Part shown: one piece after another, positions 2,618 to 23,956 of the stretch
Layout: every line of letters starts with the position of its first letter
Position numbering within the stretch: the first letter of the stretch is position 1
From: Planctomycetaceae bacterium
GTDB lineage: Bacteria > Planctomycetota > Planctomycetia > Pirellulales > Pirellulaceae
Assembly (NCBI GenBank): GCA_022614795.1
Contig: JAKEHX010000154.1
Coordinates: 1 to 34,366, forward strand
Direction of reading: 5' to 3'
DNA length: 34,366 nucleotides
Made by a program: the position numbers and the translations under genes
Notes under the pieces: model-generated
Seen by the model: only the letters and a program-made list of their open reading frames with translations
What the model was told of the DNA's origin: nothing
The model's database searches: none

Positions 2618-3576
2618 GCGTAACGGACGAGATGAGGGAACGAGGATTTATGAACTGAAAAAATGCAACCCGATGCAGTAGCCGGTGCGACCAGCGATAA
2701 GGTACGGCTGGATAAGCCTTTGCGCAGCCCGCCGCCAGCAAGCACTGCGCAGCATTTACGAGCTACTACTCCCAGCGCCGGCGACTGTCACTACGCCGGT
2801 GTCCGGGGGGAGGTTCAAGCTGGGTTGTAATTTCTCCAAGTCCGGCTGGCAGGATGGAAAACCGACAATCCAGCCGAATTCACCACTATAAGGGCCGTTG
2901 GCGGACCATGCAAGGATCGCCGTAAGTGGTTGCAGCGGAAGGAGCTACGGCGAGGCGCTGGCAACATCGAGCCGGGCCGCAAGCGATGGACAGCTCCTGA
3001 CAAGCCTTGTCGTACCCGGGAAAGAGTTACAACGCACGGGCCTGTGCCAGAGCCGTGGAGTTGTCGGCTTTTGAATCCGCAGGCAATGCTGCAACCGACT
3101 GGCCGACAATGACTTACGCACTCGTCACGCCGTTGACAGGCATCCTAGAACGACACTTTGGCACGGTGGTTGCTTTAAGGTCTGTCAGCGACGGACGGCT
3201 GAGAGGCAGCCGTCAGGATGGAACCGCGATCCCACGTCAGCAAGGAGGTATGCCTATTTGCAGACAACCGTCCGCCCAACGAGGCGAGACGGACCATCTT
3301 GGCCGCGATTGGGTAGAGTTGCGGCCTGGATTCCCGCCCAATTTCCTTCCCGCCTGGATGGGGCCGCACGGATTTCCCGCTTCCGCGCGGCCCTCTCTTT
3401 TTCTTGGGGTCGCCATCGCCATTTTCGCTGGCGTACCAAGCTCGCAGCGCTCCGGGCGGGTGTTGGCTTTCGCTGAGAGGCCGGCGTTCCGCGGTCTGAT
3501 GACTCAAGAACCTTCACGATTTGCCCGATGCGGTAGAGGGACCTGGGTTAGTATGTGTGGTGAGGAGGGAGACCTC

Positions 3577-4107
3577 ATGAGGCGACGACGGTTCGCAGAC
3601 GGCTGCTTGGCCGTACTGGCTGTGGGTTTGGTGGCGTGTCAGGCGGTGGCCGCCGAACAGCCAGCAACGCCGGTCCAGACGCACGAGCGGCTGCTGGGAT
3701 TGATCAACAAATCTCGCTCCTCCGGCCCTGCCAGTCTCACCTCCGACGAGATGGTGGAGTTGTATTCCGCCGAGCAATCCCTTGATCCCAGCGGCATCGG
3801 CTATTTCGACGAGCTGATGTGGTGGTGGGCAGCCCAGAGCGGACTTGACGAAGTGGCCGCCGCTAGCAAGTTGACGACCTCATTTGAGCAGAAACTGGGT
3901 GCGGCGCCGGCAGGCTTTCGAGAGCGGTTAGTCCTCGCCTTGAATGGTCTGCCGGCCACTGGCCGTACTGTCTATTTGCCGCCGGCCTATGTAGTTTCCG
4001 GTCCGGCCTACCGCGTGCGGCCTGTCCTGGTTCCGGGAAAATCCAGGTTTGGAATCACGGAAAAGGACGGCATCAGCCGGCGCAGCATTTTCCAACCAGT
4101 ACCTTAG
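3577..4107 (+). CDS. Hypothetical exported protein, probable lipoprotein
   Basis: Internal ATG of track ORF 3007..4107, preceded by GAGGAGGGA 7-8 nt upstream. The N-terminus MRRRRFADGCLAVLAVGLVAC has a basic n-region, a hydrophobic core and a lipobox-like LVAC. The upstream 190 codons of the track ORF do not look protein-like. Confidence 0.6.
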   Translation: MRRRRFADGCLAVLAVGLVACQAVAAEQPATPVQTHERLLGLINKSRSSGPASLTSDEMVELYSAEQSLDPSGIGYFDELMWWWAAQSGLDEVAAASKLTTSFEQKLGAAPAGFRERLVLALNGLPATGRTVYLPPAYVVSGPAYRVRPVLVPGKSRFGITEKDGISRRSIFQPVP

Positions 4108-4252
4108 CGGGTCGAAACCGGGTTGCCCTTAATGGTTGCAATGATTGGATGAAGTCTGCTGATCCGGCGGACCGATGCTCGCCAATAGCGTCCCTGTTCC
4201 CATTGTCTGAAGGGCTTGGGCGGGGGAGCTGGCTGCGCGCTGGGGGGCGCCA

Positions 4253-5893
4253 ATGGGTCATTCAATGGGGAGGGGCCTGCGGCCTCCGCCGACAAGCGCC
4301 TGGATGTCGCCCTGCCTGCTTGTCGCGCTAAGCATGGCGGCCATCGTCGCTCCGGTACGGGCCGATGAACTGGGTGCGCAAGCGGCACAGCCGCCCGCTC
4401 AGCCGTCGTTGGCCCAAAGCCTGATTGACTCGCATAGCGACATCGCGTGGCGGACGCTCAGCCGGGGGAACCTGGAGCGTGCCGAGGCGATGTTTCGGGA
4501 CATCTTGCAGCGCGATCCAGATCGGCCCCGTGAGATCGCGGGCCTCTCCGCGGCGCTGGCACGGCAAGGCAAGTTTGAAGATGCCATCGGCGTGCTGGAC
4601 GCAGGCGTCGCGAGATTTCCAAATAGCGCGCTGCTCGCGTCGGCGCTGGGCCAGGCCTATCTTCAGTCCCAGGACAATCAGGCGGCCATGCATTGGCTCG
4701 AGCGGGCCTACGACCTGGACCCGGCGGCGCCTGACGTGCCGTATTTCCTGGGTTCGTCCTACCTGCGATGCGAGTTGCCGCTATCGGCTTTGGACGTGCT
4801 CTGCGGCGCCGAGACGTCGCGCCAGGAGATGGCCTGGTCGCAAGACCTGGCCATCGGGACCGCCTTCAGCCAGTTGGGCCTGGAATGCCAGGCGAGCGGG
4901 TATTTCATGGGCGTTTATGAGGAGGCGCGGGACACGCCGCTGGCCGAGCGCGCCATGCAGCTTCAGGACCAAATGGACGATGCGCTCCTCGGGCGGCCGT
5001 ATTGGCGCGGCTCCCTGAAGGTGACGGAGCGCTACGACGACAATCCGGGCATCGTCCCGGTTGCGGATGCGATGAGTGTTCCACTCTCCAGCCAGCCCTC
5101 GGCGGGCAATCTGTACGCACTTGACCTGGCGCACGATCTGGTCCGCGAGTACAACTACGACCTCACCGCGGGTTACTCGTTCCTGCACACCAATAACTAC
5201 GTGGCACACCAGTTCGACCTGGTCGATAACGGCCTGTACCTGGCCTCGGTGCGGCGCGGCTATTGGCGGGGGCGGCCGACGCAGACGGGCGTCCGTCTGG
5301 ACTACGACCACATGTTCCTGGGTAGTGAAGATTTCCTCCAGCGGCTGATTGTCACCCCGTCGCTGACGCTGATCGAGTCGGATTGGGATGCGACCGTCCT
5401 CATGGTGCGCTATACGCTGTTCGATTTTCTCGGGCAGGGAGCGTTGAACGGAACGCCCTTCGACCTGGACGGCGATACGCTCCTCTTGGGCATCGACCAG
5501 CGGCGCCAGCTTGCCGGCCGCAATATGACCCTGATCGCGGGCTACCACTTCGACCAGCATTTCTCGGAGGGTTCCAACTACGACTACAGCGGCCACATGC
5601 TGCGGACTGGCGCCGAGTGGGAAACGCCGCTCCACGGCCTGCGGATCAACCTGCTGGGTGAGATCTACTTCCGCTCGTACGAAAACCCCAACAGCATCTT
5701 TGGCATCTTCCGGGACGACGAGGAATATCAGGCCCTGGTGCAGATCGTGTATCCGCTCGGCGACCGGTGGCGCTTGTCGGTCGAATGGGTTTTCGACCGC
5801 AACGACTCGAACCTGGTCACCAACGATTTCCGCCACAACGTGATCGACGCCGGCATCGAATACAATTGGCTGGGCGGCTGCGATGCAGACTAG
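4253..5893 (+). CDS. Outer-membrane protein with an N-terminal TPR domain and a C-terminal beta-barrel (Slam/DUF560-like architecture)
   Basis: Signal peptide CLLVALSMAAIVAPVRA/DE. TPR-like helices span residues ~60-190 (AEAMFRDILQRDPDRPREIAGLSAALARQGKFEDAIGVLDAGV..., NQAAMHWLERAYDLDPAAPDVPYFLGSSYL). The last ~300 aa show alternating hydrophobic/aromatic strand patterns (YALDLAHDLV, YDLTAGYSFLH, LYLASVRRGYW, TGVRLDYDHMF, MTLIAGYHFDQ, RLSVEWVFDRN, IDAGIEYNW). The start could instead be ATG 4304. Confidence 0.75.
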   Translation: MGHSMGRGLRPPPTSAWMSPCLLVALSMAAIVAPVRADELGAQAAQPPAQPSLAQSLIDSHSDIAWRTLSRGNLERAEAMFRDILQRDPDRPREIAGLSAALARQGKFEDAIGVLDAGVARFPNSALLASALGQAYLQSQDNQAAMHWLERAYDLDPAAPDVPYFLGSSYLRCELPLSALDVLCGAETSRQEMAWSQDLAIGTAFSQLGLECQASGYFMGVYEEARDTPLAERAMQLQDQMDDALLGRPYWRGSLKVTERYDDNPGIVPVADAMSVPLSSQPSAGNLYALDLAHDLVREYNYDLTAGYSFLHTNNYVAHQFDLVDNGLYLASVRRGYWRGRPTQTGVRLDYDHMFLGSEDFLQRLIVTPSLTLIESDWDATVLMVRYTLFDFLGQGALNGTPFDLDGDTLLLGIDQRRQLAGRNMTLIAGYHFDQHFSEGSNYDYSGHMLRTGAEWETPLHGLRINLLGEIYFRSYENPNSIFGIFRDDEEYQALVQIVYPLGDRWRLSVEWVFDRNDSNLVTNDFRHNVIDAGIEYNWLGGCDAD

Positions 5894-5921
5894 CCGCTTC
5901 CAGCCGCGGCACGATCGGGAA

Positions 5922-6848
5922 CTATTTGCTGAGCTTGAGCCCCGTCATAGCGCGGGCCCCACCGGCCAGGCCGCCGGTCGTGCGGAGTGCCATCGTGGCG
6001 CCGCCGACTTGCTTCGAGCGAATCGAGCTGCCCAGATTCAGGTGGCTCATGCCGGTGAGTCCGCCGGCCGGCGCGGTCCTGAGTCCCTTCATGGAACCAC
6101 CGGAGCCGGCGCCCATCAGGGGGCCCATCAGGGTGAACGAGTTCTTCCGCCACGCGGGATTCACTAGCTCGGGCGGACCGGGCATTGCGTCGTCCCAGAG
6201 GCCGCCATCCGAGGGCTTGGAGTCGCCGCCATCGCCGCCGCCGCCCTTTTTCTTACCGTGCTTGAGGCCATCTTTGATTTGCCCCCCCAGCGAGCCGCCG
6301 TTGCCGTCGAAGCCGGGCCCGAGGGGATAGCCGGCCCCCGCCCAAAACTCTTCGAATTCCTTTTGCGGCGAGGCGAACTCGATGCTGCTCGGGCTTTGTC
6401 CGCCCGGGGAGTCGCCGGAAGGGTTGTGCAAGGGGCCGATCCCTTTTCCTTTGGAGGTAAGCAGCGTGCCCAGCGGCGTCTGCTCCACGGCTGGGCCGCT
6501 CAATCCGCCGCCCCCTTTCTGCTTGAGCAGCGCCAGGCGGGAGCCAAAGTCGCCCGGCGCCTCGTCCGGGCCATCCGGACTGGGATTGATGAAGCCGACC
6601 TCCAGCGTATTACCATCTGAGTCGAAGTGCTCCCAGTAAAACTGGTCGAAGTCCGCGTCGTAATACACATTCAGAAAAGTACCGTCATCGAAGCTTGCTT
6701 GATAGATGGGCGTCTCCGCCATCGCGTGCTGCGGCGCGGCCGCCAACGTTAAAGCAAGCATCGCGCCGCAGGCCACTTGCGCAACCATTCGCCGGCTTGT
6801 CACCAAGGCGAAGCACCACATCAGGTTCTGGAATGTGCTAGTTAACAT
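5922..6848 (-). CDS. Glycine-rich secreted protein, paralog 1 (C-terminal tail TGLKLSK)
   Basis: Start trimmed from track ORF 5922..6959 to ATG 6848 (MLTSTFQNLMWCFALVTSRRMVAQVACGAMLALTLAAAPQHAMA/ETP), with GAGGAG 8 nt upstream. It aligns along its full length with the 6997..7890 product. Shared blocks are L(L/A)KQKGG, TPLG.(L/I)L, P(P/N)PELVNP, (N/K)SF.L and a GLKLS[KR] terminus. Confidence 0.7.
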   Translation of the reverse strand: MLTSTFQNLMWCFALVTSRRMVAQVACGAMLALTLAAAPQHAMAETPIYQASFDDGTFLNVYYDADFDQFYWEHFDSDGNTLEVGFINPSPDGPDEAPGDFGSRLALLKQKGGGGLSGPAVEQTPLGTLLTSKGKGIGPLHNPSGDSPGGQSPSSIEFASPQKEFEEFWAGAGYPLGPGFDGNGGSLGGQIKDGLKHGKKKGGGGDGGDSKPSDGGLWDDAMPGPPELVNPAWRKNSFTLMGPLMGAGSGGSMKGLRTAPAGGLTGMSHLNLGSSIRSKQVGGATMALRTTGGLAGGARAMTGLKLSK

Positions 6849-6985
6849 GGCGAGTCTCCTCGTCGGCAGGGAGTGATCTTTAGGCCGCGCGACGGCCGAA
6901 CGTCGCTGCATTGCTCGCACTGGCCGCACCCGCAATCGGCCTTTCCCTGCCGAGCGCACGAATCCGAAGTTTGTGACATCACTCG
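6849..6985 (-). promoter_or_regulatory. Conserved 5' leader, copy 1 (upstream of paralog 1)
   Basis: Shares identity blocks with 7997-8120: AACATGGCGAGTCT(C/T)CTCGTCGGCAGG, ACGGCCGAACGTC, GCACCCGC, CCTTTCCCTGCC, GCGCACGAA and GTGAC. It contains a 6-bp hairpin (6889-6906). A long-range pairing CGGCAGGGA/TCCCTGCCG abuts the SD. Confidence 0.5.
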
Positions 6986-6996
6986 TCGAGGCGCTC

Positions 6997-7890
6997 TTAC
7001 CGGCTCAACTTCAGGCCGGTTACAGGACGTGCGGCGCTGCCGATGTTGAGGCCGCCGCTAGACCGGAGGGCCGACGCACCGTGCATCGTTGTGGCAGAGC
7101 GGCCAACCCACTTGGTCTGGCTAAATCCGCCGGAGCCGAAGGTCATTTTCGCGCTTAGGCCCTGGGAGGCTCCGCGAGGACTGACGGCCATCGTGGGCGG
7201 CACAAGTATGAAGCTCTTTTGAATGGGCACCGGATTCACCAGCTCCGGGTTGGCGGGATATTGGCCGTCATAGAAGCCATGGTCTTCCTTGTGGCCATCG
7301 TCGCCACCGCCGTTATTGTTATTGCCGTTGCCGTGGTTCGTTTTAATCTGCTCCGAGAGCGGGCCGCCGTTGGGATCGATGGAGCCCCCGCCTGCGCCGC
7401 CCCCTTCCCAGCCGGCATCGCGAAACACGTCGGCCGGATTCCAATGGGAAACGATCGTCCCGCCTTGACGGATCAGAATGTCGCCCAGCGGCGTCTTGAA
7501 CGCGTTGGGTCGGAATTCGAATTGCCCCCCCTTCTGCTTGGCAAGCTGGAGCAAGCCGTCCCGATCGCTGGGCCCCTCGGTGCCGGTGCCGTACACCGGG
7601 TCGGCCGGATTATCGACATCTTCGATCGGATACCAGACGTAGAACTCGTCCGACTCATACTTGACAACATACCACCAGGTGTGGCTGCCGTCGTCCTCTT
7701 CATACTCGACGACAGCGTGCGTCTTCTCGCCATCGTTCATCTGCCACCAGACGGTTGTGTCCGCCGCAACATCGCCGATCGGAAACGCGAGCAGCACAAC
7801 AGCCGCCAAGGCGCATAGAGCGGATGACCGAAACGCGAGGTGGCTCGCCCGGCGGCGTGACGAAATCGTGATTGTGTGGTCCCTAAACAT
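6997..7890 (-). CDS. Glycine-rich secreted protein, paralog 2 (C-terminal tail TGLKLSR)
   Basis: 297-aa ORF with ATG at 7890. Signal peptide RRRASHLAFRSSALCALAAVVLLAFPIGDVAA/DTT. It has an aromatic/acidic N-domain, a Gly/Asn-rich centre (NHGNGNNNNGGGDDGH) and a Gly/Ser-rich C-terminus. Paralogous to 5922..6848. Confidence 0.7.
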   Translation of the reverse strand: MFRDHTITISSRRRASHLAFRSSALCALAAVVLLAFPIGDVAADTTVWWQMNDGEKTHAVVEYEEDDGSHTWWYVVKYESDEFYVWYPIEDVDNPADPVYGTGTEGPSDRDGLLQLAKQKGGQFEFRPNAFKTPLGDILIRQGGTIVSHWNPADVFRDAGWEGGGAGGGSIDPNGGPLSEQIKTNHGNGNNNNGGGDDGHKEDHGFYDGQYPANPELVNPVPIQKSFILVPPTMAVSPRGASQGLSAKMTFGSGGFSQTKWVGRSATTMHGASALRSSGGLNIGSAARPVTGLKLSR

Positions 7891-8120
7891 GCCTCTCTCC
7901 CTTCAACTGCCGGTGGCCCGCGAAAATCTGCCGGCGCACCTGCACTGTGTAGCGCAGCGACGGGTCCAATGTTACTGGGGATTCGCTGGTCAACATGGCG
8001 AGTCTTCTCGTCGGCAGGTAGTTGTTACGGCGCGCAACGGCCGAACGTCACAGCGCCACCCTCGTTCGCGGCACCCGCCAACGACCTTTCCCTGCCAGGC
8101 GCACGAAATCGGCGGTTGTG
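7883..8120 (-). promoter_or_regulatory. Conserved 5' leader, copy 2, including a 37-codon upstream ORF (7883-7996) that overlaps the paralog 2 start codon
   Basis: The region 7988-8120 matches the copy-1 leader, including the ATG TTR ACC AGC (MLTS) codons. Here that ATG (7996-7994) opens a short frame ending at TAG 7885-7883, out of frame with the main ATG at 7890-7888. Confidence 0.5.
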
Positions 8121-8133
8121 ACACGACGCACAA

Positions 8134-8173
8134 GCGAATCGCGACGCGATTCGCCCGCAGCGCAAGCTTGCGC
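8134..8173 (-). terminator. Two GC-rich palindromes downstream of the paralog remnant
   Basis: GCGAATCGCG-A-CGCGATTCGC (8134-8154) and the perfect 14-nt palindrome GCGCAAGCTTGCGC (8160-8173). Both lie immediately 3' (minus sense) of the remnant stop codon at 8176-8178. Confidence 0.4.
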
Positions 8174-8175
8174 CT

Positions 8176-8225
8176 TTAGCGGCTCAACTCCAGGCCGGCT
8201 CGGACCGAGTAGCCCGCAAGGTCCC
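8176..8225 (-). pseudogene. 3'-terminal remnant of a third glycine-rich paralog (reads ...AGLELSR-stop)
   Basis: TTAGCGGCTCAACTCCAGGCCGG at 8176-8198 matches the paralog 2 tail TTACCGGCTCAACTTCAGGCCGG (6997-7019) at 21 of 23 nt. It sits in the same position relative to a leader copy. No long ORF continues upstream. Confidence 0.4.
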
Positions 8226-10812: not shown

Positions 10813-11811
10813 TCACGGCAAGGTGACGACTTCCTGCCCATTGCGGGTGAAAGTTCCGTGCCAGGTTGCCTGAGCGATCGTATTGGGCACGAACCGCACG
10901 CTGCCGTCGCATAGTGACGCTTGAATTCCGCCGGGATGGAAACTCCAAACGGTCCGCCCTACCTGTCCCCACGCATACATCAGGGCGGGAATCGGGTTGG
11001 GCGGCATGGGCCGGCCCGTTCCAACGGCCGCAATGGCCATCCCCTGTGAATGATGGTTCACCCAGACGAAAGGATTGGTTGGCAGCCACTTGAACTTCGT
11101 GCCCGAGGGACCGCGACCGAGTTCGGAGAAGGTGCTGGCCTGTTCCAGATGCATGAAAGTATTGCTCGTCCCGTCGGTGATCTCCGCCATCCGGATGCGG
11201 CTGTTCTTGTGGCCGATGCCGTCGCTCGACAGCGCGCGCTCCGGACAGCAGGCGCTAATGTTGATTCCGCCGCCGGAATTCACGGCATAGTCCTTGTAGC
11301 GGCCAGCGGCGGTCGTATTGGGACTCGAAGGGCAGTTGAAGGTCTTGGGCATTTGTTGGCAGGGTCCTACGTTTTGTGCACCGTGCGTCGTTTCGGGACC
11401 AAACGTGCTGAACCAGACATCGGACCGCTCGGCCACATAGGGGCGCTGGTCCACATTGAACTGGACGAGCAGGTTTCCCCCCTCCATGAATGGCAGGATG
11501 CCGACCGGCCAGCCCCACATGCCGTCATAGAACCCGCCGTTGTTTTCGGCCACACCGCTCCTGTTGTTGGCCCCCACTGACCAGGCATTGGCGGCCAGAT
11601 TGCCCGCGGGAAATTGCAGATACGTGTCGTGATAGTTGTGATAGGCAATCGCCAGTTGCTTCAGATTGTTTCCGCACTGGCTGCGGCGCGCGGCCTCGCG
11701 GGCCGCCTGCACCGCAGGCAAGAGCAGCGCCACCAGGACCCCAATGATGGCAATGACGACGAGTAATTCAACGAGTGTGAACCCCCGCCGCGAACGACGA
11801 GAATCGAACAT
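10813..11811 (-). CDS. DUF1559 (H-X9-DG) protein with a prepilin-type N-terminal cleavage/methylation domain
   Basis: GFTLVELLVVIAIIGVLVALLLPAVQAAREAARRSQCGNNLKQLAIAYHNYHDTY is the family signature. The start was trimmed to ATG 11811 (MFDSRRSRRGFTLVELL), with GGAGGA 7 nt upstream. Confidence 0.9.
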   Translation of the reverse strand: MFDSRRSRRGFTLVELLVVIAIIGVLVALLLPAVQAAREAARRSQCGNNLKQLAIAYHNYHDTYLQFPAGNLAANAWSVGANNRSGVAENNGGFYDGMWGWPVGILPFMEGGNLLVQFNVDQRPYVAERSDVWFSTFGPETTHGAQNVGPCQQMPKTFNCPSSPNTTAAGRYKDYAVNSGGGINISACCPERALSSDGIGHKNSRIRMAEITDGTSNTFMHLEQASTFSELGRGPSGTKFKWLPTNPFVWVNHHSQGMAIAAVGTGRPMPPNPIPALMYAWGQVGRTVWSFHPGGIQASLCDGSVRFVPNTIAQATWHGTFTRNGQEVVTLP

Positions 11812-11996
11812 AGACCGATCCTCCGGCACCGATGAAAAGAAGGAAAAGATGCGCTCATCCTGCTGGTGCGAAGCGCGGAGCGAGCGCGGGAATTGTACTG
11901 CCAGCAAAGTGCCACAAGCAAGCGAATTCGCCGCGCAGTGAACTTTTGCGCTCCTGCTCGGTCCGGACGCCGGTCATGGACGACCGAGCTAAGTGG

Positions 11997-14900
11997 TCAG
12001 CGGTTGAACAAGAACGCCGGGCTGTTGATCAGAGCCCAGGCGAGGTCTTGCACGCCGATCTGGCGGGCGTTCTTGGCGGCGTCGGCGGCCTTGCCAACTT
12101 CGGCCGTCAGGCGCGCGAGTTCGCCGTCGAGCGAGCGATAGTGCGCGGCCAGGGCCGCTGCCTGCTCGGGAGTGCGCTTGTCGGCGGGCACGGCGAGCGC
12201 GGCGGCGATTGCTTCAGGGAGCTTGCTCTCCATCACCGGGCGCTTGGCATCGGTCACGCTGATGCGGAACTTGCCCAACAGGTGCATGCCGTCGGGGAAT
12301 TGCTGCGAAATGGTCAGCGTCAGCACGGAGCCGCCGTCGTGAGCGACGTCGGTCTTGGTCTCGAAGATCGCCGTGTGCGTCTTGCCGAACTGGGGCGATA
12401 CGGCCCACCCGGTATCTTCACTGCCGTCGATCGCGGCCGAAACGTGCCAGCCATCCTGGCTGAAATCGGCGGACGCGTTCGCGAGGCCAATCGCTTCGGC
12501 CTTGGCCGGATCGGCCTTGGGAGCGGCCGAGAGTTTCAGCTCGCTGACGACGAAATTGCCGTTTTGTGCCCGGCCGGGTCCGCCGGCGGCGAGCGCCGGA
12601 TCGGCGATGGCTTCCAGGCGAATAGCGGTAATTCCCTTGAGATCGGTCGGCGCGACGAAGGAGTAAACGTCCTTGCCCGTCGTGCCCGTGGCCACGACAG
12701 ACTTGTCGTCTTGCCTGGCGAGCGTTGCACCAACCGCCGACTTAAGCTCGCTCGGATCGAGCGGCGTCCAGACGAGCGGCTTGCCGATCGAGGCTTCCCA
12801 GGCGGCTAATTTGGCGGGAATGGTCTTCTCATATTCGGCCAGGGCAGCGGCGGCTTTGGCCTGCTCGGCGGCGGCGGCCTGGAGGGCATCGACGCCAAGC
12901 GTCAGCTCCTTCTCGGTCGGCTTGCGGGCCAAAAAGCGGATGAAGACCTCTTCGATGAGCTTCTTATCGTCGGGCTCGCTGGTGGCAAGCTTGTTCAGAT
13001 CGCTGCCGCCGTCGGCCAGGGCGTTGGCGACGGTAGGGCCGTTGACGAGCTTCATGATCGGACCGAGGACCATGCCGCTGGACCGCTCGCATTCGCAGGC
13101 CGATTCGCGCACCGGCTTGCCGAAATCTTCGAGAAACGCGTCGGAAATGCCCGCGTCAGGCAGCTCCGCGGCCCGGAAACCGGCGGGCACACCTGGCAAT
13201 CGCTGTGTCGCGCCGGCGGCCATGTGAATCGCGTCGTAGAGCACTTCCGCCGGCAGCCGGCGGGGAATCGCGTGCGAATAGTTGATCGTGTCGTCCTCAT
13301 TCCATTGGTTGGTGGCGACCGAAGCCTGGTACGTCCGCGATTTGCAGATCGTCCGCAAGATGTGCTGCGCGTCGAAGCCGCTGGCGACGAAATCCTTGGT
13401 CAAGGCGTCGAGCAGCTCGGGGTTGGTGGCCGGGTTGCCGGCGCGGATGTCGTCGATCGGCTCGATAATGCCGGGGCCAAAGAGATAGCCCCAGAGGCGA
13501 TTGACGTAGCTCTTGGCAAAATATTGGTTGTCCTTCGATGTGATCCAGCGGGCGAGCTGCTCGCGGCGGGCCGCTTCGGCGGGGGCCTGGTCGCCGTGGG
13601 CATACGGGAATAACGGCGGCACGACCTGGCCGGTGCGGTCGTGCTTCACGTCGCCGCTGCCCGTGTCGTAGATCGCCTCGACCAGCGGTACGGCACCTTC
13701 GACGGCCGAGCCGCCGATATTCTGCCCGGCAAACTCCGGCAGCGGCTTGCGGCCGACCTGGGCGAAATACTGGGATAGCTGGTAATACTGGTCCTGGGTC
13801 CAGCGCTCGAACGGGTGATCGTGGCACTTGTTGCAGTTGAACCGCACGGCGAGGAAGAGGTGCGTTGTGTTTTCCATGGCGGCGGTCGGGTCGCGCAGCA
13901 CTTTCCAATAGGCCGCCGGCGGATTGTCGAGATTCGACCCGCGGGCCGTCAGCACCTCGTACGCCATCTTGTCATACGGCTTATTGGTGGCGATCGATTC
14001 CTTGATCCAGTTCCGCAAAGCAATCGAGCCTTCCTCGCCCAGGAACTTGCGGTTGACCTGCAAGAGATCGGCCCACTTGTTCGTCCAGTGCTCGACATAC
14101 TCGCGGCTGCCGACAAGCTGATCGACAAGGGCGTCGCGCTTGGCTCGGCTTTCGCCCGGCAAGGCAAGGAAGGCCTTGGTTTGTTCGCTGGTGGGCGGCA
14201 GGCCGGTCAGATCGATATAAACGCGGCGAACGAAATCCTCGTCGGTGCACAGGTCGCTCGGCAGAATCTTGACCTGCTGAAGCTTCTTGTCCACAAGCTG
14301 ATCGATGTAATTGAGCTGCGGCTTCTGCTCCCAGGCAAAGCCGGTGCGGTCGCCCATGACGACGATGGTGGTCGCGGCATACGCTCCTTCATAACGGACG
14401 AGGACCGGGGCCTCACCGCGGCGGAGTGTGGTCAGCACGCCGCTCGTGTTGGCTTCGATGATCTCGATGTTGCCGCTTTCGATGAAGGCCTCGCGGGTCA
14501 CGTCGCGCACCAGGCCATCAGCGTAGGTCGCCATCACGGTGACTTGCTGCTTCATGCCGGGACGGGGAACCGTCGGATTGACCGGCAGCACCTCGATCTT
14601 ACTGACGCGCGGGGCCGCCAGGTCGAGCTTCACCCCCTGGCTGATCCAATCGCGGACGAGGGTGTAATACGGATGATCGACGGTCGTGCGGACGCCGCCG
14701 ACATGCGGAATCGAGCCGGTCGCCTTGAGCAACATCAGGCTCTGGTCGGGTGCCGAGCGGTTGAAGCGGCGGCCGCCGATGTCGTCGGTGAAGGCGCGAT
14801 GGTCATAGAGCGCGTCGTAGCCGCGGAGCGAAAGTTTGAAGCCCGCCTTGCCTTCCTTCGCGCCGTGGCAGGTGCCCGCGTTGCAGCCCATGCGGGAAAG

Positions 14901-15320
14901 GGCCGGCTGCACGTCGCGGACATAGCTGACGGTGTGCGGAGCGGTGAAACCGCTGACGGTCACCGGCACGGCTACCGTGTGGCCGGCGAAGGTGAAGGTG
15001 ACCTGGTCGCTGCCGTCGGCCTTCGCGCGTACGAGGCCATCGTTGGACACCGTAACCGCGCCGCCGCTTTGCGACGGCTTGGCGATCCGCGTCAGATCGA
15101 CGATTTCGCCCGTGTCTAGCTTGCCGGTGACGAGCACCTGGCGATAGTCGAACTTATGCTTCAGCTCGACCGCTTGCGGGTGAGCGGCGATGGACACGAC
15201 GTTCAGTCCATCGGGCAGTTTTTCAGCTGGGGCGTCATCGCCGCGGGCAGAGAGGACCAGGGCCGACAGGGCCAGGGCGGAGATCCAGCAGAGTATGCAG
15301 AGCGGGCGGTTGACGTTCAT
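11997..15320 (-). CDS. PSD1/PSCyt2 (DUF1549 + DUF1553) domain-containing giant exported protein
   Basis: CNAGTCHGAKEGKAGFKLSLRGYD (PSCyt2-like), FVRRVYIDLTGLPPTSEQTKAFL (DUF1549) and RFNCNKCHDHPFERWTQDQYY (DUF1553). Signal peptide MNVNRPLCILCWISALALSALVLSARG. Start set at ATG 15320 (GAAGGTGG upstream); an alternative is ATG 15338. Confidence 0.9.
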   Translation of the reverse strand: MNVNRPLCILCWISALALSALVLSARGDDAPAEKLPDGLNVVSIAAHPQAVELKHKFDYRQVLVTGKLDTGEIVDLTRIAKPSQSGGAVTVSNDGLVRAKADGSDQVTFTFAGHTVAVPVTVSGFTAPHTVSYVRDVQPALSRMGCNAGTCHGAKEGKAGFKLSLRGYDALYDHRAFTDDIGGRRFNRSAPDQSLMLLKATGSIPHVGGVRTTVDHPYYTLVRDWISQGVKLDLAAPRVSKIEVLPVNPTVPRPGMKQQVTVMATYADGLVRDVTREAFIESGNIEIIEANTSGVLTTLRRGEAPVLVRYEGAYAATTIVVMGDRTGFAWEQKPQLNYIDQLVDKKLQQVKILPSDLCTDEDFVRRVYIDLTGLPPTSEQTKAFLALPGESRAKRDALVDQLVGSREYVEHWTNKWADLLQVNRKFLGEEGSIALRNWIKESIATNKPYDKMAYEVLTARGSNLDNPPAAYWKVLRDPTAAMENTTHLFLAVRFNCNKCHDHPFERWTQDQYYQLSQYFAQVGRKPLPEFAGQNIGGSAVEGAVPLVEAIYDTGSGDVKHDRTGQVVPPLFPYAHGDQAPAEAARREQLARWITSKDNQYFAKSYVNRLWGYLFGPGIIEPIDDIRAGNPATNPELLDALTKDFVASGFDAQHILRTICKSRTYQASVATNQWNEDDTINYSHAIPRRLPAEVLYDAIHMAAGATQRLPGVPAGFRAAELPDAGISDAFLEDFGKPVRESACECERSSGMVLGPIMKLVNGPTVANALADGGSDLNKLATSEPDDKKLIEEVFIRFLARKPTEKELTLGVDALQAAAAEQAKAAAALAEYEKTIPAKLAAWEASIGKPLVWTPLDPSELKSAVGATLARQDDKSVVATGTTGKDVYSFVAPTDLKGITAIRLEAIADPALAAGGPGRAQNGNFVVSELKLSAAPKADPAKAEAIGLANASADFSQDGWHVSAAIDGSEDTGWAVSPQFGKTHTAIFETKTDVAHDGGSVLTLTISQQFPDGMHLLGKFRISVTDAKRPVMESKLPEAIAAALAVPADKRTPEQAAALAAHYRSLDGELARLTAEVGKAADAAKNARQIGVQDLAWALINSPAFLFNR

Positions 15321-15339
15321 CCGATGTTCCACCTTCATT

Positions 15340-15420
15340 AGCCGGGACCAAACCTGGTCCCGGTTGTGAGCAATTCGATCTTCCACTGCAAGGCTTCCGG
15401 GACCAGGTTTGGTCCCGGCT
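15340..15420. repeat. Twin-hairpin element (CCGGGACCA stems, AACC / GGTT loops)
   Basis: AGCCGGGACCAAACCTGGTCCCGG (15340-15363) is the exact reverse complement of CCGGGACCAGGTTTGGTCCCGGCT (15397-15420). Each arm is itself a 9-bp hairpin. The spacer is 33 nt. It lies between the WD40 gene stop and the PSD1 gene start. Confidence 0.85.
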
Positions 15421-19052: not shown

Positions 19053-21248
19053 ATGCCGTGGAACATTTTGACGCGGACAATTCTGCTGGCGACCGGACTG
19101 GTTGGCGTGCTGGCATGCCTTGTGACAGGCAGGCTCGTCGCACAGGACGCGGGGATCGACCCGAGCCGGTTGCCGGGCATCGTCGTTGACGATTCGCAGG
19201 CGGTGACTGAAGGGACGTGGACCAAGTCGCGCCATACGCGGCCATTCGTCGGCGATTCGTATATCTACAGCCAGGGCGGAGCCGGCCAGACGGTGAAGTT
19301 CCCCGTGGAAGTGAACGAAGCGGGCACTTATCAAGTGCTCGTGTCGTATTCGCCGGGCACCAATCGCACGACGAAGGCGGCGATCATTGTGCCGACCGAA
19401 GATGGCGACAAGACCGTCGTCCTCGATCAGCAGCCGCGGCCGGCTGGGCCCTATAGTTTTCAGCCGCTGGGCGAGTTTCCGCTCTCCTCGGGCAAGTTCG
19501 AGATTACGGTGTCCGGCGCGGGGAGCGAGAAGGGGGTCGTCATTGCCGACTCGGTGCTGCTCCTGTCGCCCGAGGGCTTCGCCCAGTTCAAGGCCGACTT
19601 TGAGAAGAACACGCCCAAGCTGGCGGCCAATTTGAAGGTCGATCCGAATAAGCCCGCCAACAAGCCCGCCAAGCCAGTCGCTAAGCCCGAAGACAAGAAG
19701 CCCGAGCCGCCGCAGGAGACGCCGCCGGCTTTTGTTCGCAAAGCGCCGGCCAAACCGGTGGCGAAGCTAACCGCGGACGAGCTCGATGCCCTGATGGAAA
19801 AGCACGTCGGCGGCATTGCCGATGTGTCGCTGGTCGCCGACGAAGATTACATCCGCCGCGTCACGCTCGACATCATCGGCCGCCAGCCAACGCTGTCCGA
19901 ATGCGACGCCTTTGCCGCCGATGACGCGATGGACAAACGAGCCCGGCTCGTTGAGCGGCTCTTGGCCTCGCCCGAATTTGGCACGAACTGGGGCAATTAC
20001 TACAGCGACGTGATCAGCTACCGCACGCCCGAGCCCGAGCTGACCTTCCTCAACTACACGCCGTTCAAAAAGTGGCTGGCCGACGAGTTTCGTGCCAATC
20101 GCGGCTGGGACGAGATCAGCTACCAGGTGATTACGGCGGTGGGCAAAGTGGGCGACAACCCGGCGGCCACGTATGTCGGCTTCCACCAGGGGGACCGCTC
20201 GCGGCTGGCGTCCGAGACGACCCGCGTTTTCCTCTCGACACAGATTCAATGTGCCGAGTGCCACGACCACAAGTTCGTCGAGATGCCGCAGGAGACGTTC
20301 CATCACGTCGCGGCCTTCTTCGTCCGCGTGCAGGCCAAGCTGCCCTGGAACGATTCGAGCCAGATCGTCGTCTCCAGCAAACCCGCCGGCGAGCACAAGA
20401 TGGACGGCCGCAAGGAAGAGATGAAGCCGATCGCCTTCTCCGAGCGGGAGGTCGATCTGGGCCGGAGCGACGTTTCCCGCCGCGTCGAGCTGGCCGACTG
20501 GATCGTCGGTCCCGACAATCCGTGGTTCGCCAAGGCCTTCGTCAATCGCGTCTGGGCCCGCACGATGGGCCGCGGCTTCTGCGAGCCGGTCGATGAAATC
20601 GGTGAGCTGGGTGACCGCGTGCTCCCCGAAGTACACACCGCCCTGGCCGAGCACTTCGTGGCGAGCCAGTTCGACGTGAAGGACCTGTTTCGCGTTGTCG
20701 CGACCAGCAGGGCGTACCAGCGGCAGCTGCGCGACCCGCAGGATGACACTGAGCGCAAGCCGTTTGCCGTGGTTGCCGCGGGCCGGCTGCGGGGGGACGA
20801 AGTGTTCGACTCGCTGGCCGCGGGGATCGCCCTGCCCAATGTGACGCCGCCGCCGACCCCTGCCACCGACGCGATCCGCTTCCCCCCGCCCCCCAAGAGC
20901 ACGCGCGACCTGGTGAACGAGGCCTTCGGTTTTGACCCGTCATCCGACCAGAGCAACGTGAACCGGACGATGCAGCAGGCGATGCTGCTAATGAACAACA
21001 AGCAGATCCAGGCGCAGATTGACGCCTCGCCCAGCTCCGGCACAATGCTTGCAAAAATCGTCGCCGCCGAATCCGACGACACGGCCGCTGTCACCAAGCT
21101 CTACCAACAAGTCCTGGCCCGCAAGCCGACGCCGAAGGAACTCGACATCGCCCGTGAGCACATGAAGTCGGTCGGCGACCGCAAAACCGGCTACGAAGAC
21201 CTGCTCTGGAGCATGGTGAACAGCGCGGAGTTTTTGTCGCGGAGATAA
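19053..21248 (+). CDS. DUF1549 + DUF1553 (PSD1) protein with an N-terminal carbohydrate-binding-like module
   Basis: Signal peptide MPWNILTRTILLATGLVGVLACLVTG. Lys/Pro linker KPANKPAKPVAKPEDKKPEPP. DEDYIRRVTLDIIGRQPTLSECDAF (DUF1549) and QIQCAECHDHKFVEMPQETFHHVAAFF (DUF1553). GAGGA lies 8 nt upstream of the ATG. Confidence 0.9.
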   Translation: MPWNILTRTILLATGLVGVLACLVTGRLVAQDAGIDPSRLPGIVVDDSQAVTEGTWTKSRHTRPFVGDSYIYSQGGAGQTVKFPVEVNEAGTYQVLVSYSPGTNRTTKAAIIVPTEDGDKTVVLDQQPRPAGPYSFQPLGEFPLSSGKFEITVSGAGSEKGVVIADSVLLLSPEGFAQFKADFEKNTPKLAANLKVDPNKPANKPAKPVAKPEDKKPEPPQETPPAFVRKAPAKPVAKLTADELDALMEKHVGGIADVSLVADEDYIRRVTLDIIGRQPTLSECDAFAADDAMDKRARLVERLLASPEFGTNWGNYYSDVISYRTPEPELTFLNYTPFKKWLADEFRANRGWDEISYQVITAVGKVGDNPAATYVGFHQGDRSRLASETTRVFLSTQIQCAECHDHKFVEMPQETFHHVAAFFVRVQAKLPWNDSSQIVVSSKPAGEHKMDGRKEEMKPIAFSEREVDLGRSDVSRRVELADWIVGPDNPWFAKAFVNRVWARTMGRGFCEPVDEIGELGDRVLPEVHTALAEHFVASQFDVKDLFRVVATSRAYQRQLRDPQDDTERKPFAVVAAGRLRGDEVFDSLAAGIALPNVTPPPTPATDAIRFPPPPKSTRDLVNEAFGFDPSSDQSNVNRTMQQAMLLMNNKQIQAQIDASPSSGTMLAKIVAAESDDTAAVTKLYQQVLARKPTPKELDIAREHMKSVGDRKTGYEDLLWSMVNSAEFLSRR

Positions 21249-21253
21249 GTGGT

Positions 21254-21272
21254 CCGCTCGCTCCGCGAGCGG
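21254..21272 (+). terminator. Small hairpin after the PSD1 gene
   Basis: CCGCTCG-CTCCG-CGAGCGG, 6 nt after the stop codon. No U-tract follows. Confidence 0.3.
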
Positions 21273-21290
21273 AAGCCCTAGGGTAGGAGT

Positions 21291-21908
21291 ATGAAATCGA
21301 CTGAATCAGCAAACGAGGCGAATCCTTGGCTGGCAATGGCAGGTTCGCTCAAGGACAGTCCGCTATTTGATGAATGGAAGGCAGCGGTCGAGGAGTATCG
21401 ACGGCAGTGCGACGTTCGTGATGGTGTTGAGCTTGATCGTCCCTATCCAAAGCCGGAGGGTCGAATGTTGGCAGCAATTTGCGAAGCTGATTTCCAACTA
21501 AATGAGATGTACACCCGCCACGAAATCAACGAGGTTCTCGGCGGGTCCGTTCGATCGTTTCTTCCAACTGTAAATGGCGAGGTTGTGTGCGGTTGCTTCG
21601 ACCCGAGCGACAAAATGAATCCTCATGCACCTGAGGAGATTCTGTTCGGAGAACCGTATCCAACGCCGGTGATCGACAAGGCCGCGACGACCGTCTTTGA
21701 AATGGGACAGCGCGGTGAAGACATTCCCGTCTTCCTTAAACGAGGCTCGAATCAATGGGAGTATATTGGTCGATATTTGTGCATCGGGCTAACTCGCGAT
21801 GCGAGAGTCGTTCGTCGAAAGAGCGAGGAAAGCCCGGATCGTCGGCCCTTTGTCGGAATCCTTCGATTTGAGCGAGTGGGATCTCACCTGTCACCGCTCC
21901 GCGGCTGA
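21291..21908 (+). CDS. Hypothetical protein: antitoxin-like N-terminal motif fused to an unknown ~140-aa domain (possibly PUA/SRA-like)
   Basis: AGGAG lies 5 nt upstream of the ATG. The N-terminus NPWLAMAGSLKDSPLFDEWKAAVEEYRRQCD resembles small stand-alone PIN-partner proteins. The C-terminal part is YTRHEINEVLGGSVRSFLPTVNGEVV...IPVFLKRGSNQWEYIGRY. GC content is visibly lower than the flanks. Confidence 0.7.
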   Translation: MKSTESANEANPWLAMAGSLKDSPLFDEWKAAVEEYRRQCDVRDGVELDRPYPKPEGRMLAAICEADFQLNEMYTRHEINEVLGGSVRSFLPTVNGEVVCGCFDPSDKMNPHAPEEILFGEPYPTPVIDKAATTVFEMGQRGEDIPVFLKRGSNQWEYIGRYLCIGLTRDARVVRRKSEESPDRRPFVGILRFERVGSHLSPLRG

Positions 21909-21935
21909 GGCATTGAAGCATAGCGAGCGGCAGAG

Positions 21936-22412
21936 ATGGCATCAGTTTACCTTGAAACGACAATCCCGAGCTACCTGACGGCGTGGCGCAGTCCCGACCT
22001 CGTCATGGCCGCCCGGCAGCAAATCACGCGAGAATGGTGGGACACAAGACGCGGCGATTTCGATTTGTTCATTTCACAACTGGTCATCGATGAAGCAAGC
22101 GCCGGCGACGCTTCGGCAGCGGCACGCCGGCTGGAGGTTCTCGAAGGGATCACGCTGTTGGAATTTGGAGACGATGCCAACGCCCTTTCCAAATTGCTAG
22201 TTCGCGAACTGTCCTTGCCATTGCGTGCTGAGTCCGACGCAGTCCACATCGCGATGGCAGTGGTGAATGGCATCGATTATTTGCTAACCTGGAATTGCAC
22301 GCACATTGCCAATGCGGCGCTGCGGCCGAGAATTGAACAGGCCTGCCGTGCGTTCGAATACCGAATGCCCGTGATTTGCACTCCCGAAGAACTGAAGGCG
22401 GTACTCCCATGA
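21936..22412 (+). CDS. PIN-domain protein (VapC-family type II toxin)
   Basis: VYLETTIPSYLTAWRSPDLVMAARQQITREWW...ISQLVIDEASAGD...ESDAVHIAMAVVNGIDYLLTWNCTHIAN matches a PIN subfamily common in cyanobacteria and planctomycetes. Confidence 0.85.
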   Translation: MASVYLETTIPSYLTAWRSPDLVMAARQQITREWWDTRRGDFDLFISQLVIDEASAGDASAAARRLEVLEGITLLEFGDDANALSKLLVRELSLPLRAESDAVHIAMAVVNGIDYLLTWNCTHIANAALRPRIEQACRAFEYRMPVICTPEELKAVLP

Positions 22413-22618
22413 AACTTGATCCCGTCCTTGCTGAAATCCGCGCGACGCGCGAAGCGTTTTCCGAGCGCTTTCACGGCGATATCGACGCGATGCTTGCCGA
22501 CTTGCGCAAGCGCCAGGCAGAGGGGGGCCGGAAGTCGGTTCGTTTGTCTCCGAAGCGATTGACCCCGGAAGAGCTTGCACGGCCAATTTACCGTGTGCCC
22601 GTCGCGACCCGATCATAA
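22409..22618 (+). CDS. Small PIN-associated protein (putative antitoxin/partner)
   Basis: The ATG overlaps the PIN stop codon (ATGA at 22409-22412). MKLDPVLAEIRATREAFSERFHGDIDAMLADLRKRQ resembles small helical proteins found next to this PIN subfamily. Confidence 0.65.
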   Translation: MKLDPVLAEIRATREAFSERFHGDIDAMLADLRKRQAEGGRKSVRLSPKRLTPEELARPIYRVPVATRS

Positions 22619-22636
22619 TACTATGGAACGAAAGTT

Positions 22637-23956
22637 ATGCTCCGCACATTCGCATCCGCACACGTTACCGGCGAGGGCGTTGCCAGCCGCCGCGGGTTTT
22701 TGAAGTCGCTGGCCGTGGCAGGCGGGACTGGCGCGATCAGCCTGAGCTGGCGCGATATGTTGCTGGCCAAGGCCGCCGAGCTGAAACAGGCTGGCAAGAA
22801 GATGATTTTGCTGTGGATGGACGGCGGGCCGTCGCAGTACGACACGTTCAATCCCAAGCCGGGGTCGGAGTTTCAGGGGCCGACGCAAGCGATCGATACC
22901 AAGGTGCCAGGGATACAGATTGGCGAGCACTGGCCCAAGACAGCCCAGGTGTTCGACAAGATCGCCCTGATCCGCTCGATGGTTAGCGACGAACGCGATC
23001 ATTTCCGGGCGATCAAGCTCGTGCGGACCGGCTATCCGATCAAGCCCACGATTCCCTATCCGACGTGGGGCAGCGTCGTCGCCCGCGACCGGTTCGATCC
23101 GGGCTTCGACCTGCCTGCGTTCGTGCGGATCGGCAGCCCGCGGATCAAGACCCGCGACGTTAATAGCGGCGTCCTGGGACCGCGGTTCGAATCGTTCAAG
23201 ATCGCCGAGCCGGGCAAGCTGCCCGAGGACGTGCATCCGACCGTGCCGGCCGATGTTTTGCAGCGACGGCTGGCGCTGGCGGCCAGGCTGGACAGCGAGT
23301 TCGCCGCCCGCGGCAGCGCCCGGGCCGCCCGTGAGCAGCGCGAAATCTATGATCGCACCAGCCGCTTCGTCCTGAGCCCCATGCTCGACGTGTTCAACCT
23401 CGACAAGGAAACCGATGCATTGCGCGACGCCTATGGCCGCAATGCTTTCGGCCAGGGGTGCTTACTCGCCCGGCGGCTGGTCGAGGCGGGGGTGAGCTTT
23501 GTCGAGGTCATCAACAGCGGCACGCTCAATGACCAGGGCTGGGACACGCACAAGCGAGGCTTCAAGGAGAACCCGATTCTGGCCGGCGAAACCGACAGCG
23601 GCTATGCGATGCTGCTGACGGATCTTGCCCAGCGGGGCCTCTTGGACGACACGCTGGTCGTGTGGATGGGCGAGTTCTGCCGCACGCCGAAATATGAGGA
23701 CAACGCCGGCGGGCGGAACCACTACAGCGAAGGCTGGCTGGTGGGCCTGTCGGGCGGCGGCGTGAAGATGGGGCAGGCGATCGGTGCGACCGACGCCGAC
23801 AATGTGAAGGTAACCGACCGGCCGATCGGCGTCTCGGACCTGTTCGTCACGTTCTGCCACGTCCTGGGCCTGAATCCGCACGACGAATACACAACCGAAC
23901 TCAACCAGCCGCTGAAGCTGGTCGAGGGGGGCGAGGTGATCAAGGAGTTGTTTTGA
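22637..23956 (+). CDS. DUF1501 domain-containing (sulfatase-like) protein with a Tat signal
   Basis: Twin-arginine SRRGFLKSLAVAGGTGA. The family signature is LLWMDGGPSQYDTFNPKP, IRSMVSDERDH and VWMGEFCRTP. Confidence 0.92.
   Translation: MLRTFASAHVTGEGVASRRGFLKSLAVAGGTGAISLSWRDMLLAKAAELKQAGKKMILLWMDGGPSQYDTFNPKPGSEFQGPTQAIDTKVPGIQIGEHWPKTAQVFDKIALIRSMVSDERDHFRAIKLVRTGYPIKPTIPYPTWGSVVARDRFDPGFDLPAFVRIGSPRIKTRDVNSGVLGPRFESFKIAEPGKLPEDVHPTVPADVLQRRLALAARLDSEFAARGSARAAREQREIYDRTSRFVLSPMLDVFNLDKETDALRDAYGRNAFGQGCLLARRLVEAGVSFVEVINSGTLNDQGWDTHKRGFKENPILAGETDSGYAMLLTDLAQRGLLDDTLVVWMGEFCRTPKYEDNAGGRNHYSEGWLVGLSGGGVKMGQAIGATDADNVKVTDRPIGVSDLFVTFCHVLGLNPHDEYTTELNQPLKLVEGGEVIKELF

Follow-up and report, generated by a model that had tools for sequence, protein, structure and literature searches.

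The 34,366-nt contig JAKEHX010000154.1 of a Planctomycetaceae metagenome-assembled genome (MAG; assembly GCA_022614795.1), which in its full length is hereafter referred to as the window, harbors at positions 3577–8225 a set of genes that belongs to a conserved three-family module, known here from a few Planctomycetota lineages: a gene for a protein combining tetratricopeptide repeats (TPR) with an outer-membrane β-barrel, a small gene directly upstream of it, here called upA, and a varying number of genes for glycine-rich secreted paralogs. The explanation we favor, although to our mind it is about evenly poised between being right and being wrong, is that of a self-contained cell-envelope module, in which a translocon resembling Slam of the type XI secretion system (T11SS) would be accompanied by upA and a variable paralog cargo. 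By analogy with that system, the module might be described as a divergent Slam-like one with non-canonical candidate cargo, the secretion of which is putative. Such a reading of the locus draws on predicted structures, on distant sequence relationships and on the synteny seen in a small number of metagenomic lineages, the last of these being the strongest new evidence for a module. The conserved module and the unusual partners of its barrel are also the new part of the finding, whereas the domain match is not, since some of the planctomycete orthologues had already been tagged with PF04575 (SlipAM, DUF560) by automated Pfam annotation.

Synteny across planctomycete loci

Hidden Markov models (HMMs) of the three families (barrel, upA and paralogs) were searched against all of the fetched loci; a scan of GTDB genomes gave four loci, and a metagenome scan approaching from the paralog side gave two, one scoring identically to locus L008 and the other being a 2.4-kb contig that probably carries P0022. 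The upA gene lies directly upstream of the barrel gene, and is co-directional with it, in all nine informative planctomycete loci (the window, L001/L002, L003, L004, L005, L006, L008, L009 and L012), the gaps between the two being 36–234 nt, with a possible 4-nt overlap in L008 if a TTG start is used there. L018, in which upA is placed likewise and whose profile-search scores are identical to those of L008, presumably stems from that genome or from one very close to it. It is upA, and not the paralogs, that is most tightly bound up with the barrel gene, which was overlooked in an earlier reading of this DNA made without any database searches (hereafter, the sequence-only reading), all of whose named open reading frames (ORFs) are nevertheless present where it had placed them.

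Paralog genes, one to four of them, adjoin the barrel gene in five of the seven loci with enough flank. Two adjacent paralogs are seen in each of the window, L001, L005 and L012, four in L008, and a single one in L006, where it is located upstream and on the same strand; L007 carries three in tandem at a contig end, and L004 has a truncated convergent ORF ending in …TRIAR*, which is not scored by the paralog HMM. The co-occurrence of the barrel gene and the paralog family, put forward by the sequence-only reading as a check of its own proposal, is thereby found across planctomycete loci, and it is also found from the opposite direction, as a search begun from paralog P0174 led to a locus holding both a barrel gene and upA. 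Genes flanking the module outside of the three families vary among the loci, and a search for a fourth gene conserved in the module found none (upstream in L001 and L003 there are genes of 130 aa and 98 aa, but these are mutually unrelated and absent from the window). Neither the window flanks nor the other eight planctomycete loci contain glycosyltransferase or polysaccharide-modifying genes. In L006, a second and far more distant TPR-barrel gene (positions 3876–5351, minus strand; 465-aa called product; barrel-profile E 1e-8) is found convergent to the main one and just downstream of it.

The TPR-barrel protein and its relatives

The barrel gene of the window (4253..5893, plus strand) encodes a Slam/T11SS-like protein of 546 aa, for which the sequence-only reading had proposed a signal peptide, several TPR-like helix pairs and a strand-rich C-terminal region, the latter two of which are borne out by an AlphaFold2 (AF2) model and, as regards the repeats, by Pfam TPR matches. 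Its signal-like N-terminus (…LLVALSMAAIVAPVRA|DE), as read from the sequence, corresponds to a predicted signal peptide of residues 1–37 (4253..4363; …APVRA|DE); the product annotated by NCBI is 529 aa long and starts at M18, and residues 1–50 have a predicted local distance difference test (pLDDT) value below 50. The AF2 model, built on 15 close relatives (46–83% identical, all of them from Planctomycetota-type metagenome contigs or MAGs), has a mean pLDDT of 84.9 and a pTM of 0.78, and comprises 12 helices (residues 53–246), i.e., a predicted periplasmic TPR domain of about six helix pairs (4409..4990) with helix pLDDT values above 90, followed by exactly 14 strands as assigned by DSSP (residues 251–539; 5003..5869). 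TPR_14, TPR_19, TPR_16 and TPR_2 score above their Pfam thresholds at residues ~60–185, whereas an NCBIfam scan yielded nothing but generic TPR cross-matches, all far under the cut-offs. The domain order is thus of the Slam type, as had been suspected, and the strand count is the 14 expected for Slam and not 16–18. The IEYNW sequence, taken earlier for the end of the protein, does close the last strand, but seven further residues (LGGCDAD) follow it.

When compared with the PDB by Foldseek, the TPR domain matched MamA and consensus TPR proteins, and the barrel alone was best matched by the 14-stranded CymA and OmpG (TMt 0.52–0.64). The top matches by E-value were BcsC and, lower, PelBC, at template modeling (TM) scores of 0.29–0.41 and root-mean-square deviations (rmsd) of 12–18 Å, and these are driven by the TPR domain plus a generic barrel. 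No solved Slam structure surfaced in the Foldseek/PDB search; a PDB sequence search with a barrel-only profile retrieved nothing, and one with a full-length profile retrieved TPR proteins only.

The sequence evidence for a relationship with Slam comes from the orthologues. With the Pfam gathering scores being 22 bits for SlipAM (PF04575), 23.7 bits for BBP2_2 (PF10082) and 35.2 bits for TPR_Slam (PF24575), matches at E ≤ 1 among the 15 orthologues were recorded for SlipAM in 10 (best 1.9e-8), BBP2_2 in 14, DUF2860 in nine and TPR_Slam in seven, the BBP2_2 matches covering only the last ~55–75 of the 378 model positions and mostly staying below threshold. Three of the four barrel domains scanned singly passed the SlipAM threshold (P0014, 34.6 bits; P0011, 27.4 bits; P0003, 27.8 bits), all three belonging to orthologues 50–57% identical overall to the window protein. 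Among 1.84 billion representatives, 1577 proteins were matched at E ≤ 1e-3 by a barrel-domain profile, most of them ~500–550 aa long with a C-terminal barrel, and the relatives that could be named include Planctomycetota MAGs, Candidatus Riflebacteria MAGs and a Desulfobacula MAG. Of 45 such relatives sampled, SlipAM was matched by 14 and TPR_Slam by 21, and one protein, P0133, which is hit by the barrel profile over the whole barrel (E 1.1e-17), matches SlipAM positions 1–285 of 288 with 49.1 bits. The Slam (DUF560) homology suspected by the sequence-only reading is therefore to be retained in part: three orthologue barrel domains and the P0133 link speak for it, but the window protein itself stays below threshold. 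The window family would seem to be a remote branch of the SlipAM superfamily, to which the window protein is connected through its relatives.

In the loop after barrel strand 1 lies the motif that is best conserved in the family, RYDDNPG(V/I)(I/V)P (residues 260–269; 5030–5059, plus strand), and it is also in this loop that confidence in the modeled barrel is lowest (pLDDT below 50 at residues 269–277). Residues D262, N264, P265, G266 and P269 are invariant among the orthologues, and in the 45 distant relatives D262 is still invariant, with Y261 and N264 at least 90% conserved; the loop could be a gate or a plug.

More distant barrel relatives (L011, L015, L016 and L017; 35–40% identity) lack both the upA and the paralog families. 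In three of these loci (L011, 6094–7404; L015, 2728–4911; L017, 5592–6896), one of which derives from a Desulfobacula MAG, the barrel gene is immediately preceded on its own strand by a gene for a large protein of 434–727 aa, acidic or of low complexity, with an N-terminal hydrophobic signal-like segment, no Pfam domain and no relation to upA. Such a pattern fits a layout of “variable exported protein, then translocator”, and the upstream proteins could be lineage-specific cargo.

The candidate partners and their surroundings

The product of upA (3577..4107, plus strand), the gene immediately before that of the barrel protein, is a 176-aa protein predicted to be Sec-exported. That upA is a real gene follows from HMM matches in other loci at E 1e-53 or better. 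Its orthologues share a median identity of 31%, with conservation residing in a WWWAA core and a C-terminal G-x-P-x-FGPxEKNGISRxS; no relatives were found in Pfam (eight orthologues scanned), NCBIfam or the PDB. Its translated signal region (MRRRRFADGCLAVLAVGLVAC|QAVAA|EQ) includes the LVAC that had led the sequence-only reading to regard the product as a lipoprotein. Of the eight orthologues, however, four are without this cysteine, and in most the hydrophobic core is followed by a signal-peptidase-I site of the AxA type, so, judging by these alignments, upA is not a conserved lipoprotein, although the window copy could be one.

The two full-length paralogs, encoded convergently to the barrel gene (5922..6848, minus strand, 308 aa from the Met at 6848, with the ORF reaching a GTG at 6959; and 6997..7890, minus strand, 297 aa, signal peptide 1–43), are much as they had been described from their translations: homologous to each other (30% identity, E 3e-19), equipped with signal peptides whose cleavage sites have an Ala at −1 that does not vary in the alignment, rich in Gly (18% and 13%, respectively), and possessing a small aromatic/acidic N-terminal part predicted to form a sheet. 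Family motifs are NPxP, KTPxG…GKG, GGFDPNGG…EQ.K and P(E/P)PE(L/I)VNP.P…SFVL, and paralog 2 (6997..7890) contains the linear motifs KTPLG, IDPNGGP(L/I)SEQIK and YPANPELVNPVP, along with a terminal Arg. None of the 16 paralogs has a Pfam match, none was found for the family in NCBIfam or the PDB, and no lipobox is seen in these proteins. The paralogs evolve faster than the barrel protein, median pairwise identities being 27% vs. 53%.

The proposal that a shared TGLKLS[KR] ending, or a conserved C-terminal region at large, serves as a recognition element has fared less well. The ending is confined to the window lineage (MTGLKLSK in the 5922..6848 product and VTGLKLSR in the 6997..7890 product), and only the terminal R/K is kept family-wide, Arg or Lys being the very last residue in 15 of the 16 paralogs (…LKLSR, …IAGGR, …VKIAR, …SFQPR), although many pairs of these are no more than 18–30% identical. 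In the low-confidence AF2 model of paralog 2 (pLDDT 40), residues 143–297 are below 50 and only a four-strand sheet at residues 45–87 and a few short elements reach 50–65, so that neither an 8-strand barrel nor a β-signal was found in the C-terminal half, which is predicted to be disordered; because of this, the known logic of T11SS cargo recognition does not transfer. A PEP-CTERM-like interpretation of “PELVNP…R” was also considered and dropped, as the motif is followed by 75–90 Gly/Ser-rich residues and no transmembrane helix.

What had been taken for the 3′ stub of a third paralog (8176..8225) turned out to be a nucleotide-level relic and not a gene. Positions 8176..8198 of the minus strand (…AGLELSR*), just before the start of a FolC-like gene (8233), are identical at 21 of 23 nt to the last 23 nt of the 6997..7890 gene (6997–7019), a match attained by 0 of 100 shuffles, with in-frame stops just upstream and no protein-level match by the paralog HMM, so only the nucleotide match supports it; taken together, these point to a remnant of a lost third copy.

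As to the surroundings, a protein scan of the window flanks revealed genes for an ABC ATPase, a FolC-like Mur ligase, DUF1559 and PSCyt2/PSD1 proteins, and no mobile-element genes were seen among the window proteins scanned. Planctomycete signature genes at 10813–15386 and 19053–23956 encode a DUF1559 protein with an N-terminal methylation motif, two PSCyt2/PSD1 proteins (one of them carrying a Golvesin C-terminal domain) and a DUF1501 protein; flanking the module as they do, they confirm the phylum. No convincing ORF, Rfam match or promoter-like site is present in the ~960 nt (2618–3576) that separate upA from the divergent ABC-ATPase gene, and a TTG-started ORF at 3007–4107 is a mere upstream extension of upA, the added part of which is without conservation. 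The barrel gene and that of paralog 1, running toward each other, have only 28 nt between their stops (5894–5921), where no terminator-like hairpin was found. A promoter/terminator scan performed no better than on shuffles, and the Rfam and tRNA scans of the window were empty.

Competing explanations and known systems

If the locus does encode a Slam-like translocon with its cargo, the course of events might be as follows: Sec would export the barrel protein, upA and the paralogs to the periplasm, as the signal peptides read in their sequences suggest; the TPR domain would dock upA and the paralogs, and the barrel would then pass the docked partners, largely unfolded, or anchor them at the cell surface, for which synteny and the analogy with T11SS are the arguments. 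That the barrel translocates or anchors its neighbors at all is likewise suggested by synteny and that analogy. In such a scheme, upA would be a fixed 1:1 partner, serving as an accessory subunit unless it is itself the primary cargo, the latter being conceivable because it sits where the distant relatives encode other large secreted proteins, and the paralogs would be a family of variable cargo, directed to the surface and threaded in an unfolded state, as their 0–4 copies, fast divergence, tandem duplication and decayed copy are all cargo-like. Recognition might proceed via short conserved motifs, possibly including the C-terminal Arg/Lys, with the canonical 8-strand cargo barrel excluded. 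The still more specific proposition, that Planctomycetota own a Slam/T11SS branch exporting disordered Gly-rich proteins (and perhaps upA) recognized by linear motifs and/or the C-terminal Arg, is put forward tentatively and is, in our opinion, rather doubtful.

A number of observations weigh against the Slam-like interpretation. The window barrel protein has no SlipAM match at E ≤ 1, scores only 13.7 bits against TPR_Slam (threshold 35.2), and reaches a sub-threshold 15.5–17.3 bits against BBP2_2, covering model positions 302–375 of 378 only; even in the orthologues, the SlipAM matches extend just over the C-terminal half of the model (~150–288 of 288). Known T11SS cargo is united by an 8-strand C-terminal barrel (PMC5449769, PMC12282271), which neither of the neighbors has (judging by AF2 and Pfam for the paralogs, and by Pfam/PDB sequence searches for upA), and the neighboring surface lipoprotein that is typical of Slam loci, yet not obligatory given that soluble cargo is known, is likewise no conserved feature here. 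No paralog adjoins the barrel gene in L003 and L010 despite enough flank. Finally, in L014 (1069–6497), the SlipAM-positive P0133 follows GT87, GT2 and polysaccharide-deacetylase-like genes, a PGA-like context, which means that the SlipAM superfamily is not exclusively protein-secreting and suggests that a part of it serves polysaccharide export; Pfam DUF560 is, indeed, known to capture some PgaA homologues (PMC8406197).

The principal alternative would be an envelope complex without a secretory role, in which the barrel would be a channel or scaffold stably associated with upA as a periplasmic or plug subunit, while the paralogs would be TPR-bound structural proteins of the periplasm or cell wall that are never translocated, i.e., the whole would be a structural or tethering module. 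We deem this possible, though somewhat unlikely. The strict 1:1 pairing of upA and the barrel does resemble a two-subunit complex, the paralogs are disordered and without a known secretion domain, and TPR domains are commonly periplasmic scaffolds, with the weak NCBIfam matches being of the BamD, YbgF, LapB and PilW types; on the other hand, fold and distant homology both lead to a family in which those members that have been tested translocate (PMC8406197), and paralogs that differ in copy number, diverge quickly and decay are better explained as exposed or secreted proteins than as fixed parts of a structure. An exopolysaccharide porin of the synthase-dependent PgaA/BcsC/PelB type with unrelated neighbors, an alternative that the sequence-only reading had itself named, appears to be quite improbable. 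It could call upon BcsC and PelBC heading the Foldseek list by E-value, upon PgaA and BcsC being among the NCBIfam matches of the TPR region, and upon the genomic company of P0133 and the PgaA homologues within DUF560 mentioned above, but is ruled against by strand number, TPR length, NCBIfam scores and gene context: the model has 14 strands, the BcsC/PelBC superpositions are poor, the NCBIfam scores for PgaA (28.4 bits vs. a cut-off of 366.65) and BcsC (17.4 vs. 858) concern the TPR only, and no glycosyltransferase is seen among the conserved components of the module or in the window flanks. Exopolysaccharide porins of the PgaA/BcsC type also carry far more TPR pairs than the approximately six present here. 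Very improbable indeed is a mere accident of adjacency, with the barrel being a general diffusion porin next to which upA and the paralogs have functions of their own, even if planctomycete genomes are poorly operonic and two loci lack adjacent paralogs, as the adjacency is kept across lineages with 46–60% identical barrels, different flanks and, in L006, a different orientation, upA is adjacent in nine of nine loci, and a periplasmic TPR domain of ~200 residues would be needless for a general porin.

Should the more specific proposition of a planctomycete Slam/T11SS branch be right, T11SS would be extended beyond Proteobacteria and a second mode of cargo recognition would be defined. A planctomycete module that has the translocator fold, yet unrelated and mostly disordered partners, would widen the phyletic range of T11SS and provide a natural case in which to study how substrates are selected and passed by a 14-strand Slam-type barrel when they have no canonical targeting domain. 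It would also offer a first hypothesis for three planctomycete families that are orphans at present, in a phylum where the traffic of outer-membrane proteins has hardly been mapped. In the literature, Slam/T11SS is a system of Proteobacteria with cargo bearing a C-terminal 8-strand barrel (PMC5449769, PMC8406197, PMC12282271), the searches of one of these studies having been restricted to proteobacterial clades (PMC5449769), and our literature search found no paper joining Slam, surface lipoproteins and Planctomycetes.

Among the known systems, PgaA, BcsC, PelB/PelC and AlgK/AlgE resemble the window protein in having a TPR region fused to, or partnering, an outer-membrane barrel and account for the top Foldseek E-values, but the PgaA/BcsC-type porins differ by their 16–18 strands, much longer TPR arrays and glycosyltransferase operons. 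CymA and OmpG, the best barrel-only structural matches, share the 14 strands, yet they have no TPR domain, are 8–11% identical and show no relation at the sequence level, so the resemblance is one of barrel size only, whereas BBP2_2 (PF10082) and DUF2860 (PF11059), for all their weak matches in the orthologues, have no known function and hence add nothing on mechanism. A precedent is the marine cluster 3 of T11SS, in which environmental DUF560-type proteins likewise neighbor candidate cargo without the canonical C-terminal barrel, co-occurring with DUF1194 proteins instead of β-barrel cargo (PMC12282271). This is the single earlier proposal of non-canonical T11SS cargo, and secretion there is likewise putative (PMC12282271); its members are, however, proteobacterial and clearly DUF560, with DUF1194 partners, whereas the partners here match neither DUF1194 nor any other Pfam family. 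From the Slam/T11SS proteins proper (N. meningitidis Slam1 NMB0313, X. nematophila NilB and HrpB), the window protein departs in falling under every SlipAM and TPR_Slam threshold, in having a host from Planctomycetota while the system of the literature is found in Proteobacteria (PMC8406197), and in its neighbors having neither an 8-strand TbpBBD/lipoprotein-C barrel nor a conserved lipobox. It shares with them, all the same, the signal peptide, the TPR domain, the 14-strand barrel and a length of ~500–550 aa (PMC5449769), as well as candidate substrates that would be Sec-dependent, are encoded next to it and are in part multi-copy, and orthologue barrel domains of its family do pass the SlipAM threshold.

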